A stretch of 64,000 nucleotides of DNA from an uncultured Pseudomonadota bacterium (GTDB taxonomy: Bacteria > Pseudomonadota > Gammaproteobacteria > CAJXQU01). Positions 1,347 through 26,338 of this stretch are shown here, in pieces. A program made the translations under genes and the position numbers. The number at the start of each line of letters is the position of its first letter. Positions within the stretch are counted from its first letter, which is position 1. The DNA lies in NCBI GenBank assembly GCA_913058255.1, contig CAJXQU010000002.1:169352-233351 (forward strand), read 5' to 3'. The notes beneath the pieces are model-generated. The model was not told where the DNA came from, did no database searches, and saw nothing but the letters and a program-made list of their open reading frames with translations.

Positions 1347-1838
1347 TCAGCTCTTGGTTTGAAAAACACCTTCCTCGCAGTTTTTTCTTACATCATCCCA
1401 AGGAAAAAGTTTTCCATTCATAGCGATGTAGATACCTTCCTGCAAACATTGCACCGCAGATATCGCACAGCCTAAATTAAACATACTATCTGAGTAACTG
1501 ATCGTAAACGGCACCATCGCACCGAACAAAACCACGGTCTTGCCTGTCAGGTTTGCTGCTAGAACTGCCGCAGTTTCAACCATCGTATCCGTACCATGAG
1601 AGATAATAATCATCTGTTCCTTACTCTCGAGGCAGTGCTGATTGATCAGGCTGCGATCATTATCATCCATCTCTAAACTGTCTTTTAGCATGACCGTTTC
1701 AGACATTATTTCAACTTTACATCGAGACTGATCAAGCATTGCAGGCATATGGCTTTCTGTAAATGTCAGGCTGCCATCTAATTCGTTGTAGATTTTGTCG
1801 ATGGTTCCACCGGTAATTATAAATTTAATAGCTGACAT
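1347..1838 (-). CDS. Single-domain asparaginase-family protein
   Basis: Catalytic motifs TGGTIDK and HGTDTM; only 163 aa (N-terminal domain). Confidence 0.85.
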   Translation of the reverse strand: MSAIKFIITGGTIDKIYNELDGSLTFTESHMPAMLDQSRCKVEIMSETVMLKDSLEMDDNDRSLINQHCLESKEQMIIISHGTDTMVETAAVLAANLTGKTVVLFGAMVPFTISYSDSMFNLGCAISAVQCLQEGIYIAMNGKLFPWDDVRKNCEEGVFQTKS

Positions 1839-1956
1839 TTAGAGCCTCGTGTTGAGTTATTGTTATGACTTCTGGTTAGCATAGTAAAGATTGTCAGAAA
1901 TTATACATGGCAAAGTATAAGTAAGTTGAACGTCTAGTGAGATACTAACAGCAGAT

Positions 1957-1985
1957 AAAAAAATGGCGCCTTTAATAAAGGCGCC
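1957..1985 (-). terminator. Rho-independent terminator
   Basis: Perfect 9-bp stem ggcgccttt/aaaggcgcc (1965-1985) followed on the minus strand by A and seven T. Confidence 0.8.
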
Positions 1986-2034
1986 TAATTTAAACCAAAG
2001 GGAGGAGCGTAACCGTCAAGGGTGACGGATTACA
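1957..2034 (-). ncRNA. Candidate sigma54-dependent base-pairing sRNA (~78 nt)
   Basis: 5' hairpin GUAAUCCGUCA-CCCU-UGACGGUUAC, then single-stranded GCUCCUCCCUUUGG, then terminator GGCGCCUUU-AUU-AAAGGCGCC with a U run. It starts ~12 nt downstream of a -24/-12 element. Confidence 0.6.
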
Positions 2035-2044
2035 AATGAGAGTT

Positions 2045-2060
2045 TGCATATGTCATGCCA
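2045..2060 (-). promoter_or_regulatory. sigma54 (RpoN) -24/-12 promoter
   Basis: Minus strand TGGCATGACATATGCA, GG-N10-GC, close to consensus TGGCAC-N5-TTGC. Confidence 0.7.
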
Positions 2061-2153
2061 TTATTTTAAATCACATATAAAACAATGAGATATAAACATG
2101 CTTATTTTTTTTCTACTTTTTTAGAGTATTCCTCGCTCAAATGTGTCCCAATT

Positions 2154-2167
2154 GTCGTGTTTTTGAC
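2154..2167 (-). promoter_or_regulatory. Possible enhancer-binding-protein site (FleQ-box-like)
   Basis: Minus strand GTCAAAAACACGAC resembles the 14-bp GTCA-A-rich-TGAC FleQ box, ~120 bp upstream of the predicted sigma54 start. Confidence 0.35.
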
Positions 2168-2319
2168 TTTCAGTATTTTGATGATTGCAGTCTCACTATA
2201 AGCTAAATTTAGGTAAGTGCTAATCGCCAGATTAAGGTGTTGTGCTTGGTACCCAGATTAATATTGAATACATAGCAAGAGGATAGTTTATATGCCTAAT
2301 AACATCATTAAGGTTAATA

Positions 2320-2466
2320 GTTAGAGATAGAATAACGTTCTAGCTATCTTTAATCCCTAACTCAGGTTAAATAAGGAAGGTGGCCATCCTTGGCCAAGTT
2401 TATTACAGGCCATTCCTTGGCCCGTAAATTACCAGCAGCTGCATGTCCGTGTGCAATCACTGCTGA
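2320..2466 (-). ncRNA. Candidate CsrA/RsmA-sequestering sRNA (Rsm/Csr type)
   Basis: Three hairpins with ANGGA in the loop: CAGCAG..UGCA-CACGGACA-UGCA..CUGCUG, UUACGGGCCA-AGGAA-UGGCCUGUAA and GGCCA-AGGA-UGGCC. A fourth AGGGA and a possible terminal hairpin lie near 2322-2360. The 3' end is uncertain. Confidence 0.65.
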
Positions 2467-2471
2467 AATAT

Positions 2472-2499
2472 GTATCGGGCAAAGGAGCAAATTCCTTTA
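2472..2499 (-). promoter_or_regulatory. sigma28 (FliA)-like promoter
   Basis: Minus strand TAAAG-N15-CCCGATAC versus consensus T(A/C)AAG-N14-GCCGATAA. One mismatch at each end of the -10 element, and the spacer is 1 nt long. Confidence 0.45.
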
Positions 2500-2580
2500 G
2501 CTTAAACCTCAGTTATTTTTTATCTTCTAGGATAACAAAGACTTGCAGAATGCAGTATGTGGCGTGACAGAATATTGACG

Positions 2581-3957
2581 CTATTCCGTATCTTGAATAG
2601 GCAAGTTGAGGTTTTGTTCACGGTTTTCAGGCTCATCGTCATAATTACTATCTAATTCAAGCGCTGAAATAGCCTGCACAGAAGAACCAATTATTCCTCT
2701 GACGTCACCATACATTCCTATCGTATTGCTTGTAATACGCTGGATCTGCTTTTCACGTTCTTTCCAGATACGCTCCATGGCACGTTTTTCTTTATGAAGC
2801 TGCTCTTGCATACTGCTGAAGGTTTCTACAATGGCTTCTACGCGTTGTTTAAACTCATCGCCAGAGAGGTAGCTGAACATCATTTCCATCTTTTCTCCTT
2901 TACCTTGAGAGGCATTTCTTGCGAAATTTATTTGGATCAATTGTTCACGTAGAGCGGAAGCTAAGGGCAAGGCTGACTGAACATCACTGACCCAGACACC
3001 CTCTAACAAACCAAAGCCTTTTATGCCCTCAGGCAAAGCTACAGTGACGAGGATGGATAAATTTGCACCGATATCACGTTGATCATCTTTTAACTTTGGT
3101 ATCCACTGCTGAGACCAGTTTTTTGTATTCTTTGCTTCCCAGATGATTTTTCCACAATCGTTCATCGTCGTGTCACGTACATCTTGGATCACATCAGCAC
3201 CTTTGATCCCTTTTGGTACAGGTGATATTTCATCATGCACAAACTGGCTACGTAGCCTTCTTTCTAGATCCAGCTCTAAAACCTCGCCTTGGATCTCCAT
3301 CGAGCCTTGTTCACTTTTGCGCTTAGCTTCCTCCAATGACTTACGCAGGCCGTCAATCTGCATCTCTTTTTCTCTAAGCTTAAGGCTAGTTTCATCAGAA
3401 AATTGTTTACTGATCTTCTCTTCTATTCCTTTACGCTCCTCATCAATTTTACGTTGAAACTCAAGATCCATATTCTTTTGCTTTTCTTCTAGTTCTCTCG
3501 CTTGTTTGCGGATCTCAAGTTCTTTCTTTTGTGCTTCTTCGACACGACTATCTTTTTCTTTTATTTGTGCTTGTAGATCATTGATCTCAACAGCTGCAGC
3601 TTGTTTGGCTTTTTGCTCCAGTTGGCTACGTAAAATCTGCTCTTGTTTTTTTAAACGTGATTCAAGTTCTTCATCTAACTGCTCACTTTTAGCCTCTAAA
3701 TCTCTTTGTTGTTTCTTTAGGCCTAACTCTTTTTGACGCGCGAGTTCTAGTCGTTGGTTCTGTTCGTCCAACTGTAGCTTCATATCTTCTTTTTCAATAG
3801 AAAATTGCTGTTGCGTCTTCTTCTCCGCTGCTGCAACTGCCTGTGAAAGCTTCTGTTCGTTGTCTTTTCTCAGTTCATTTTCGATCTGTTGTGACAGTAC
3901 CGTTGAGATCTCGATTTCAGTATTACACTCAGGGCATTTAATGGATTTGTCTGTCAT
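2581..3957 (-). CDS. DUF2130 domain-containing coiled-coil protein
   Basis: N-terminal CPEC, long coiled coil, and C-terminal QGEVLE..GADVIQ..IIWEAKNTKNWS..KLKDDQR typical of DUF2130. Confidence 0.85.
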   Translation of the reverse strand: MTDKSIKCPECNTEIEISTVLSQQIENELRKDNEQKLSQAVAAAEKKTQQQFSIEKEDMKLQLDEQNQRLELARQKELGLKKQQRDLEAKSEQLDEELESRLKKQEQILRSQLEQKAKQAAAVEINDLQAQIKEKDSRVEEAQKKELEIRKQARELEEKQKNMDLEFQRKIDEERKGIEEKISKQFSDETSLKLREKEMQIDGLRKSLEEAKRKSEQGSMEIQGEVLELDLERRLRSQFVHDEISPVPKGIKGADVIQDVRDTTMNDCGKIIWEAKNTKNWSQQWIPKLKDDQRDIGANLSILVTVALPEGIKGFGLLEGVWVSDVQSALPLASALREQLIQINFARNASQGKGEKMEMMFSYLSGDEFKQRVEAIVETFSSMQEQLHKEKRAMERIWKEREKQIQRITSNTIGMYGDVRGIIGSSVQAISALELDSNYDDEPENREQNLNLPIQDTE

Positions 3958-17611: not shown

Positions 17612-18321
17612 TAAATAAAGCTAGCGAATAAACCGATCAAGCCACCCAATACACCGCCCCAAACGACTAACCAGCCAAGGTGTTTGCGGATCATTTCTTG
17701 AATAATTTCCTTGACCATTTGCGGAGTGAGTTCGTCTAGGCGTGAATTGACAATGGACTCTATATTTTCTGTAATATCGCTGCCTAATTTATCGGTATTG
17801 AGGCCTGCATGAAGTGCTTTTTGAAATTTCTCACCAGCGGTCATATCTTCTAAAGCTGAGCGCATTTTAATTGAAACGGGTTCCCGTAAAGGTTCTAATG
17901 CTTCTGCACCACCCACCATTGCAAGCATAGAGCCTAGCGAGGAAGCATTGATTGCATCGATTAAAGATTGAAAAATTGTATCGTAATCGACCGCATCGAG
18001 AATGGGGGAAAAGTTTAAAACATTTTCTGATGAACCTTCTTCTGATTTTATAAATCGTTGAATATTTTCAGTCGTGAAAAATTGCTTCATCATGATATTT
18101 TTTATGCCTGTTTTAAATTCTTCAAACTGGTTTGGGATCACACCAGATCCATATAAAAACGGGACTTTTTCAAACAACATGTGAATCGCTAACCAGTTTG
18201 TGATAGCACCTGATAATGCAAACAAACCAACCGATAAAATGATCTTAGAGTGGACAGGAGAAACTAAGCCCGCAATAACTAGAGCGAGCGCAAGAATATT
18301 CGTGATCAGGCTTTTATTCAT
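17611..18321 (-). CDS. DUF445 family membrane protein
   Basis: TNWLAIHMLF..GVIP and C-terminal HLGWLVVWGG. Confidence 0.85.
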   Translation of the reverse strand: MNKSLITNILALALVIAGLVSPVHSKIILSVGLFALSGAITNWLAIHMLFEKVPFLYGSGVIPNQFEEFKTGIKNIMMKQFFTTENIQRFIKSEEGSSENVLNFSPILDAVDYDTIFQSLIDAINASSLGSMLAMVGGAEALEPLREPVSIKMRSALEDMTAGEKFQKALHAGLNTDKLGSDITENIESIVNSRLDELTPQMVKEIIQEMIRKHLGWLVVWGGVLGGLIGLFASFI

Positions 18322-18662
18322 GATAACTCCAGCGCAGGGGTATCGAATTTAACGCCACTCAAACCATGTAGGATGAAGTTACGTATATTGGCGTGATCAG
18401 TCGCGTCTGGATGTTGTAAAACATCTTCACGATAGTAAACACCAAAACAGGCCAGCGTTTCTTGTTCGGTCAGATCATTTAATTTTCCGAATGCAAAGAT
18501 CTTACAAGAACCTTCATTGGCTCCACTCTCGTTGACTGTATCGCCATTGATAAAATCCGTAGGTGTATAACGGTAGTTGTCTTCTATCACCTGCATCGTT
18601 TGTTGAAACTCAATGGACTCAGGACGAGTCTTAAGCTGAGTAAAAAATTCTTCTAATGTCAT
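18318..18662 (-). CDS. HopJ-domain protein
   Basis: NEGSCKIFAF and DHANIRNF motifs of the widespread HopJ family. Confidence 0.85.
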   Translation of the reverse strand: MTLEEFFTQLKTRPESIEFQQTMQVIEDNYRYTPTDFINGDTVNESGANEGSCKIFAFGKLNDLTEQETLACFGVYYREDVLQHPDATDHANIRNFILHGLSGVKFDTPALELS

Positions 18663-25356: not shown

Positions 25357-25372
25357 TGGCATCACAGTTGCT
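25357..25372 (+). promoter_or_regulatory. sigma54 promoter upstream of the VPLPA-CTERM gene
   Basis: TGGCATCACAGTTGCT (GG-N10-GC). Upstream TGTC-N10-GACA (~25246) and TTTACA are candidate activator sites. Confidence 0.75.
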
Positions 25373-25435: not shown

Positions 25436-26338
25436 ATGAAAAAAATAGCAATGTCATGTGTGCCGTTTGCGCTCGCGCTTTGTTCACAAATGGTTTCAGC
25501 CGCTGCAGTAATGGATCGTTGGGGAACTGCTACCAGCACATTTGCATTCGAATGTGCGACACAATACTGTAACGACCTCGACCGCGGAGGTCCACGTGGT
25601 TCTAGAAATGATAACGCCTACCATGAAACAATTTCCTCTTCTAGAGTCACAGATGAAGAAAATTTTAATGCCCGAGCTATCGCTGAGATTGAACATACTG
25701 GGGCCATAGCCTTACCTCATTTGCGAGGAGAGGTTTTGTCAGGGCGGAATCTTTATACAGAAGCTAGTGCTTATGCATTAGAAGGTTTCTCGTACAGTGG
25801 TATCTCACAAACCGTTAACTTAGGGATTGGGCTTGAGGGATCAATACTTGATCCCATGCCTAATAACATTTCTGATGGAACTTCTATAGCTAGTAGTGTG
25901 TATTTATTTACTGATGCGCTAGCGCTTGAAAACACATTAGCTCCAAATCAAGTTCGACTATTTGGAGCTGCTCTATTTGACTTGGCAAGTGCTGAAGAAT
26001 CATTAATCTTAAATAACTCTTCAGAACCTACGAACGGGATTCTTGCAGACACAGCAACAATAAGTTTTGATTTAGAAGATGGCGATACTTTTTATATTTA
26101 TGCAACACATCAAGTCATGTCTTCAGGTCCAGGGATTGATTGTCCCACCTGTCCTGACTTCACGAGTGCATCATCGATGAATAGTTTGAACCTAGATCTT
26201 ACAACTTTGAGTGGCGACCCCGTAACAGGTTTAACAGCAAGCTCAACAGTTGCAGCGGTGCCTTTACCAGCAGCAGTCTGGCTGATGGGCTCTGCCTTAA
26301 TGGGTTTGGTTGGTTTTAGACGAAGGAAAACGTCTTAG
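25436..26338 (+). CDS. VPLPA-CTERM (PEP-CTERM-like) exosortase substrate
   Basis: Signal peptide, Ser/Thr-rich body and C-terminal VPLPAAVWLMGSALMGLVGFRRRK. Confidence 0.92.
   Translation: MKKIAMSCVPFALALCSQMVSAAAVMDRWGTATSTFAFECATQYCNDLDRGGPRGSRNDNAYHETISSSRVTDEENFNARAIAEIEHTGAIALPHLRGEVLSGRNLYTEASAYALEGFSYSGISQTVNLGIGLEGSILDPMPNNISDGTSIASSVYLFTDALALENTLAPNQVRLFGAALFDLASAEESLILNNSSEPTNGILADTATISFDLEDGDTFYIYATHQVMSSGPGIDCPTCPDFTSASSMNSLNLDLTTLSGDPVTGLTASSTVAAVPLPAAVWLMGSALMGLVGFRRRKTS

Follow-up and report, generated by a model that had tools for sequence, protein, structure and literature searches.

The locus described here is a 742-bp gap (positions 1839-2580) in a 64-kb stretch of DNA, hereafter the window, from an uncultured gammaproteobacterium. 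The window corresponds to positions 169352-233351 of contig C2 in a genome of 2.78 Mb, 33 contigs and 41% G+C. The open reading frames (ORFs) listed in the gap are five of 36-42 amino acids (aa), and none is of 60 aa or longer. The gap contains a conserved tandem pair of new small RNA (sRNA) genes, A and B, with well-supported sigma28 and sigma54 promoters, a pair that we judge from sequence comparison to be real. Both cassettes lie on the minus strand, in the same direction as each other and as both flanking genes. In window coordinates, the locus is composed of:

2320-2467, minus strand: sRNA A, about 150 nucleotides (nt), its 5′ end inferred from the promoter and its 3′ end placed after hairpin 4
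1957-2036, minus strand: sRNA B, about 80 nt, its 5′ end placed at about 2034
2581-3957, minus strand: DUF2130 gene, 458 aa (Pfam PF09903, E 2e-69), the upstream flank, outside the RNAs
1347-1838, minus strand: gene with an asparaginase N-terminal domain, 163 aa (Pfam PF00710, E 3.3e-23), the downstream flank, outside the RNAs

The gap was compared by blastn with 41 genomes, namely the window's own genome (G000), six relatives from the same genus (G001-G006, which with G000 form the genus set) and one genome from each of 34 other families of the class. Matches were obtained in G000 and in 6/6 genus relatives, and in 0/34 genomes of the other families. The tandem cassettes with both promoters are kept in 7/7 genus genomes, and the promoter spacers and the intervening DNA vary. 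In five relatives blastn found both cassettes; in G004 it found cassette A alone, and cassette B was recovered there by reading the sequence and by a covariance model (E 1.6e-16). The DUF2130 gene stands before A in all seven genomes, as seen from its conserved C-terminal coding sequence and, in G004, from confirmation of DUF2130 itself. The asparaginase-domain gene is found downstream of B in six, and G004 has a convergent mazG at this place.

An Rfam search over the whole window produced no match at the gathering score. A permissive scan of positions 1750-2700 (E up to 10) gave eight sub-threshold matches of 16-21 bits, none of them to Csr/Rsm, Qrr or GlmY; those to MicA, suhB and RsaE-like RNAs, among others, owed their score to the terminator or to a C/U-rich stretch.

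A first-pass annotation of this DNA had described an ORF-free gap with two co-oriented RNA-like cassettes, one behind a sigma28-like promoter and the other behind a sigma54 promoter. The cassettes are confirmed by the ORF list and by the folds, conservation and covariation reported below. The promoter assignments also hold, with both elements conserved in 7/7 genomes and the sigma54 element present in 5/5 homologues from a second family. The synteny that it proposed to look for, both cassettes between DUF2130 and asparaginase homologues, was seen in relatives for the cassettes and for DUF2130, and for the asparaginase flank except in G004, where it is missing. Co-occurrence of the two RNAs was likewise seen throughout the genus, whereas B occurs without A in the second family.

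sRNA A: a sigma28-type promoter and GGA-loop hairpins

The cassette of A comprises the following elements:

2566-2579, no strand assigned: Box 1, GTCAATATTCTGTC, a GTCA-N6-TGAC-type dyad resembling FleQ boxes, some 80 nt before the sigma28 −35 element
2473-2499, minus strand: sigma28 (FliA)-type promoter of A, TAAAG-N16-CCGATA
2433-2465, minus strand: hairpin 1, loop CACGGACA, nearly invariant in sequence
2403-2427, minus strand: hairpin 2, GGA in the loop, covarying stem
2381-2396, minus strand: hairpin 3, UGGCC-AAGGAU-GGCCA with GGA in the loop, in 7/7 genomes
2320-2361, minus strand: hairpin 4, probably the terminator hairpin, its U tract weak

The promoter hexamers CTAAAG and CCGATA are identical in 6/7 genomes across a 16-nt spacer that differs freely, and G004 carries the version TCAAG-N15-TCGTTA. 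The same class of motif is found at both flagellin genes of G000 (TAAAG-N15-TCGATA and TAAAG-N15-TCGTTA). Genome-wide, TAAAG-N14-16-CCGATA has 19 matches, where five shuffles gave 2-11; of the 19, 14 lie between genes. Twelve of these 14 have a downstream ORF; six of the ORFs encode GGDEF, GGDEF-EAL, HD-GYP or HDOD proteins and one a methyl-accepting chemotaxis protein, a composition that makes a plausible FliA regulon. FliA itself is encoded (273 bits) and is the sole sigma factor above the TIGR02479 cut-off, and on the minus strand a sigma70 scan found nothing upstream of A. An equivalent of Box 1 within one mismatch is present at a similar place in 5/7 genomes. We propose that RNA polymerase with FliA transcribes A, which, if so made, is expected only once the late flagellar tier is on.

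Sigma28-type promoters also front many genes of cyclic di-GMP (c-di-GMP) signalling in G000 (e.g., C1:46840, C1:212168, C1:456355, C2:296190 and C5:134617), and the late flagellar tier of this organism may reset that signalling. Boxes of the GTCA-N6-TGAC type, in relatives often GTCAwTTTTCTGAC, flank A on both sides, at 2566-2579 upstream of its promoter and at 2154-2167 downstream.

The predicted fold of A has an energy of −50.5 kcal/mol (z −4.35), and 0/200 shuffled sequences fold equally well. After the three GGA-loop hairpins comes a fourth, whose U tract is poor, and GGA is present in all three loops in 7/7 genomes. In hairpin 2, four of the eight pairs are altered on both sides with the pairing kept, and 80.4% of cells are paired, a figure that includes a G002 row offset by one base. 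Its covariation score of 0.411, compared with 0.179 ± 0.054 in shuffles, is reached by 0/500 of them, in a control that is inflated by the relatedness of the sequences. The alignment of A has gaps of 1-5 columns, which rule out a conserved reading frame. According to folds and dyad lists, a hairpin of differing sequence occupies the position of hairpin 4 in 6/7 genomes, G001 having a weak dyad; a clear UUUU tail follows it in G005 only.

Covariance model R2, which scores A at 102 bits, was searched across the class in a sample of 151 genomes, one per family, the same that served for model R1 below. Matches were confined to G000 and G004, i.e., to the genus. The model found no second copy of A in G000, and crude scans of this genome for GGA-hairpin clusters, GGA density and GacA boxes gave no convincing candidate for another intergenic Csr RNA.

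CsrA is encoded in 7/7 genus genomes, with one copy in G000 (92 bits), and FliW in 0/7. Six flagellin leaders were recovered from four genomes; in five of them AAAAGGAGAAAGGACUAUG is conserved and places two GGA at the ribosome site, and the sixth, from G006, has AACGGAC instead. The three hairpins of A present A/C-N-GGA in their loops and may thus mimic CsrA binding sites. We propose that A most likely titrates the single CsrA of the organism. In this FliW-less lineage the progress of flagellar assembly would thereby be fed to CsrA, with A doing in RNA form what the FliW checkpoint does elsewhere.

sRNA B: a sigma54 promoter and a putative anti-Shine-Dalgarno seed

The cassette of B comprises the following elements:

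2154-2167, no strand assigned: Box 2, GTCAAAAACACGAC, a dyad of the GTCA-N6-TGAC type placed 107 nt before the sigma54 element, candidate enhancer site
2074-2087, minus strand: A/T-rich block CATTGTTTTATATG between Box 2 and the promoter, about 35 nt upstream, conserved in the alignment
2045-2060, minus strand: sigma54 promoter of B, TGGCATGACATATGCA, GG-N10-GC, in 7/7 genus genomes
2009-2033, minus strand: 5′ stem-loop, 4/10 pairs altered on both sides
1995-2008, minus strand: seed GCUCCUCCCUUUGG (anti-Shine-Dalgarno; GCTCCTCCCTTTGG), unpaired in the centroid fold
1957-1985, minus strand: Rho-independent terminator, a 9-bp G+C-rich stem followed by U7 (a T7 run in the DNA)

B is predicted to fold at −26.8 kcal/mol (z −4.97; equally good in 0/200 shuffles). 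Paired bases are retained in 93.7% of cells, compensatory changes affect six of 18 pairs and 0/500 shuffles reach the covariation score; in the seed, 13 nt are invariant in 7/7 genomes. Hfq is encoded in G000, and the build of B resembles that of base-pairing RNAs of the Hfq type. The single-stranded CUCCUCCCUUUGG, invariant among the genomes, would bind Shine-Dalgarno regions (GGGAGGAG) by pairing and so block translation of target mRNAs.

G000 encodes RpoN. The sigma54 pattern TGGCA[CT]-N5-[TA]TGC[ATC] has 30 matches in this genome, against 8-12 in shuffles, and 17 are intergenic, including sites upstream of fleS, flgE, fliL, flgJ, fliK, a flagellin-adjacent glycosyltransferase gene and a pilin gene. 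At the fleS promoter a perfect GTCATC[AC]GCTTGAC is found at −76/−77 in 7/7 genomes, overlapping the end of the fleQ coding sequence, and the fliL promoter has a box GTCAATGGACTGTC at −66. The flgE promoter is without this type of box and carries two copies of GGCAATAGCTTGCC instead; these direct copies, upstream of the sigma54 promoter (G000, C5:136520-136600), form a candidate site for the FleR-like activator.

Upstream of B, a box of the GTCA-N6-TGAC type lies at −107 to −131, perfect in G002, G003 and G005, with one mismatch in G000 and with two in G006; it was not found in the upstream region of G001, and G004 has a different dyad there. The block CATTGTTTTATATG resembles a site for integration host factor, and a similar ATTGTTT block is present upstream of B in the second family. 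A search for NtrC-type TGCACC-N5-GGTGCA with up to four mismatches gave nothing in the seven B upstream regions. Box 2 is of a type shared with the fleS and fliL promoters and thus looks like the kind of site that FleQ would be expected to use. The FleQ consensus of Pseudomonas, GTCaNTAAAtTGAC / GTCAaAAAAtTGAC, quoted in PMC6120874, is likewise matched by Box 2. The sigma54 promoter of B would be activated from the upstream dyad, and FleQ, the early master activator, is the most likely activator, judging from the FleQ-type box and from the co-occurrence of B with flagellar genes. An extended box motif, GTCANNTTTCTGAC, was tried as a definition of the regulon and abandoned, the genome-wide scan being too noisy.

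Predicted targets were sought near start codons. Among the strongest duplexes of this kind in G000 is that with the ribosome site of amtB in glnK-amtB (C6:135481-135510; locus L094, 880-912), which by hand count matches the B seed with 14 Watson-Crick and four wobble pairs out of 19. As a conserved target amtB was rejected, since in the five relatives examined the match shrinks to a bare GGAGGAG. A leader of about 320 nt behind a sigma54-like promoter precedes an AprA-like polyketide synthase gene (G000, C5:161142-161480; L095; C5:161279) and contains 11 nt, AAAGGGAGGAG, that are perfectly complementary to the seed; the leader is absent from the six relatives and is thus strain-specific. In five flagellar regions nothing prominent was predicted at the gene starts.

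Outside the genus, B could be followed with covariance model R1, which scores it at 97 bits and matched 10/151 class genomes. The only true homologue among the matches outside the genus is that of G021, which has the same stem-loop, CUCCUCCCUUGGG and terminator, a promoter TGGCACGGCATCTGCA and a TTTCTGAC half-box. Matches in G026 and G142 were unconvincing. Those in G031, G043, G102, G116 and G143 were rejected as belonging to a different type of sRNA, which carries CCUCCUUUGGUG. None of the matches outside the genus had an Rfam match. This other, apparently unnamed type, present in five families (L074, L075, L078, L079 and L080 in G031, G143, G043, G116 and G102, respectively), has C/U-rich motifs resembling CUCCUCCAUCCUCCUUUGGUG and ends in a strong terminator; a sigma70-like promoter was seen upstream of it in three of the five genomes.

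In the order of G021, which represents the second family, B is present in 5/9 genomes, always without A, and the sigma54 element stands at the same distance in 5/5. Each of the five genomes with B has a FleQ-domain ORF (484-537 aa), and in four of them FliA scores above the cut-off. B was not found in G157 and G158 (97-98% complete), which have no FliA at E 1e-40 or better and FleQ-domain matches in ORFs of 251-256 aa only, plus one marginal match in G157. None of FleQ, FliA and B was found in G162 (53% complete).

B is convergent to mazG both in G004 (L073), the most divergent member of the genus, and in G021 (L076), from a distant family. This arrangement speaks for B as a free-standing gene and against a leader of the asparaginase-domain gene, and it hints at an older neighbourhood of B and mazG.

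Two further features of the window lie apart from the locus. A sigma54-like element, TGGCATCACAGTTGCT (25357-25372), is found 63 nt upstream of a 300-aa ORF (25436-26335) without a Pfam match, and a 114-aa ORF (18321-18662) among housekeeping genes matches the HopJ family of type III effectors in Pfam (E 2.6e-47).

Alternative readings of the pair

We read the gap as two independent sRNA genes, each transcribed from its own promoter, of which A would be a CsrA decoy and B an anti-Shine-Dalgarno base-pairing RNA, and we estimate the probability of this reading at about 55%.

A number of findings count against it. On the side of A, the promoter spacer is 16 nt long in 6/7 genomes, and the other 18 matches in the genome all have 15; sigma28 promoters may tolerate one extra spacer base. 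A GacA/UvrY-type box (consensus TGTAAG-N6-CTTACA) was not found within two mismatches near C2:171.7-172.0 kb. A has a weak terminator, and two of its hairpins, 1 and 3, are almost without variation and thus give no covariation support. There are only three or four GGA sites, few for a decoy, and the window scan gave no match of A to the curated CsrB, CsrC, RsmX, RsmY or RsmZ covariance models. On the side of B, Box 2 is present within one mismatch in only 4/7 genomes. Ten strong sigma54 activators are encoded in G000, among them a FleQ homologue and, adjacent to it, a FleR-like protein, which makes ten candidates for the activator of B. The FleQ motif is short and is described in PMC6120874 as a poor genome-wide predictor. 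Target prediction found no conserved target of B. The co-occurrence of B with flagellar genes amounts to one genus-level contrast and is suggestive only, and in G156 (72% complete) FleQ and FliA are present and B was undetected. A look-up of sequencing runs listed no RNA run containing the locus, and the one DNA run listed contains 0.07 of the sampled words.

Some of the same points speak for a different view of A, in which it is a FliA-dependent RNA but no CsrA decoy, being a base-pairing sRNA, a CsrA-regulated RNA or the ligand of some other protein, with the GGA loops serving pairing or another binder. The low number of GGA sites and the missing Rfam match to Csr/Rsm would agree with this, as would the sequence of hairpin 1, which is conserved well beyond what a GGA loop needs. 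The known sigma28-dependent sRNAs of Escherichia coli, Campylobacter and Vibrio are also described as acting by base pairing. Against this view, GGA stays in the loops of three separate hairpins while one stem, that of hairpin 2, has been rewritten, the pattern expected of loop recognition by CsrA and not of a linear seed; extended pairing with B is absent, and CsrA is encoded in 7/7 genomes. We consider a non-decoy A unlikely, though it is a serious competitor.

A comparable doubt attaches to the flagellar connection of B. B may be real and sigma54-dependent but serve nitrogen or amino-acid control under an activator resembling NtrC or AauR, and stand next to A by historical chance. The complementarity of the amtB ribosome site to the seed in G000, the asparaginase-domain gene after B in 6/7 genomes, the ten strong activators and the low predictive value of the FleQ consensus are all in favour. 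Against it, the amtB match decays to GGAGGAG in the five relatives examined, no NtrC-type site is seen across the seven upstream regions even with four mismatches, a sigma54 element is not visible upstream of glnK, and asparaginase is not adjacent to B in G004 or G021. B moreover tracks the flagellar genes in the second family. A non-flagellar B is thus also improbable in our estimation, to about the same degree as a non-decoy A.

The weakest alternative, that A is a structured 3′ untranslated region (UTR) of the DUF2130 gene and B a sigma54-driven leader or attenuator of the asparaginase-domain gene, draws on the common orientation of both RNAs and both flanks, on the constancy of these neighbours (DUF2130 upstream in 7/7, asparaginase downstream in 6/7) and on the weak terminator of A, but is very unlikely given the conserved promoter of each cassette, the strong terminator of B about 120 nt ahead of the asparaginase start codon, and the seed and terminator of B kept beside convergent mazG (G004, G021) and in four further second-family genomes.

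If A is a decoy and B an anti-Shine-Dalgarno RNA, the two could be parts of a larger scheme, in which RNA reports completion of the hook-basal body to CsrA. The FliA-made decoy A would relieve the repression of late mRNAs, including that of flagellin, the FleQ/sigma54-driven B would share the locus, and FleQ-type boxes would bracket both, which together would make a two-tier RNA timer of the motile programme. We advance this scheme as speculation, and hold it to be somewhat less probable than either of the two leading alternatives. A related claim of the first-pass annotation, that an early base-pairing RNA and a late protein-sponging RNA form one timing module, stands only in part. The anatomies fit, with GGA-loop hairpins in A and an anti-Shine-Dalgarno seed and terminator in B; the joint module is not supported, as B is found without A in another family and the predicted pairing of A with B does not surpass that of shuffled controls in 7/7 genomes. 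The idea of A as a base-pairing sponge of B was rejected on these figures: duplexes of −27 to −36 kcal/mol fall within 1.3 standard deviations of the shuffled means in the seven genomes, and in one of the seven the duplex is more favourable than the mean, by 0.5 standard deviations. Pairing no better than in shuffles leaves a coupling of the two RNAs unsupported, which also weighs on the reading of the locus as a whole.

Relation to known regulatory RNAs

CsrA is tied to flagellar assembly via FliW in Firmicutes and Epsilonproteobacteria, and in Gammaproteobacteria it is controlled by decoy RNAs under GacA/UvrY-type systems. A shares with the Csr/Rsm decoys (CsrB/CsrC, RsmX/Y/Z and Pf1-3 of Pseudoalteromonas, PMC11882849) the GGA-loop hairpins, the intergenic place and the encoded CsrA. 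Those decoys have 9-21 or more GGA sites, compared with three or four in A. A further differs from them in having no covariance-model match and no GacA/UvrY-type box, and in its promoter, which is of the sigma28 and not of the sigma70 type. In Pseudoalteromonas, CsrA binds flagellar mRNAs including the one of fleQ (PMC11882849).

The proposed logic is the same as that of the FliW-CsrA-flagellin switch of Bacillus and Campylobacter (PMC4894983), in which CsrA is freed or held off its targets by the assembly state. A further likeness is the GGA found at the ribosome site of the flagellin leaders in this genus. The part of antagonist would, however, be played by an RNA that FliA polymerase makes and not by the protein FliW, so that the likeness is one of working and not of membership.

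Flagellar sRNAs of both sigma tiers are in print. Campylobacter has the RpoN-dependent CJnc230 (FlmE) and the FliA-dependent CJnc170 (FlmR) (PMC11187230). Vibrio has the sigma54-linked FlaX and the sigma28-linked FlaY and FlaZ, FlaY being proposed as a sponge of FlaX (bioRxiv 10.64898/2026.08.28.747715), and E. coli has sigma28-dependent sRNAs derived from UTRs (PMC10578931). The arrangement in Campylobacter and Vibrio is like the present one in that there is an sRNA for each of the sigma54 and sigma28 tiers. The RNAs of these three organisms are described in the same texts as base-pairing and as processed from flagellar mRNAs (flgE, flagellin UTRs), whereas A and B are free-standing tandem genes far from flagellar genes, and the late RNA is decoy-like. 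In a comparison made through Rfam only, no sequence relation of A or B to them was seen. The earlier statement that no locus with such a pairing has been described needs qualification on this account: sRNAs of the sigma54 and sigma28 tiers have been published, while a CsrA-sequestering RNA under the control of FliA was not found in the literature searched, some of which was available only in part.

In promoter design, B is like Qrr, GlmY/GlmZ, NrsZ and CrcZ, sRNAs driven by sigma54 and an activator, with GG-N10-GC, an upstream dyad and an A/T-rich block between the two, as in B; B has no Rfam match to any of them. The spacing of its dyad fits FleQ (GTCA-N6-TGAC) and not the sites of GlrR, LuxO, CbrB or NtrC. 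In its seed, B resembles the cuckoo, CcsR and alpha-r14 sRNAs, characterised by CCUCCUCCC (PMC4615179), with which it shares a C/U-rich anti-Shine-Dalgarno motif, CUCCUCCC, and an Hfq encoded in the genome. The cuckoo RNAs have 2-4 adjacent hairpins with CCUCCUCCC in each loop (PMC4615179), and B has a single CUCCUCCC in an unpaired linker; those RNAs are alphaproteobacterial, and B is gammaproteobacterial with a sigma54 promoter.

The locus adds two RNA families that lie outside Rfam, one of which, B, is common to at least two bacterial families with its sigma54 promoter always kept. B would extend the short list of activator-dependent sRNAs and offers a clean model promoter. The organisms being uncultured, the value of the finding lies mainly in a testable design and in new family models, and less in immediate physiology. 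If the proposed role of A is true, a decoy driven by the flagellar sigma factor would join the FliW-type checkpoint to control by decoy RNAs, and in these bacteria the checkpoint of flagellar assembly would be wired into CsrA by RNA alone.

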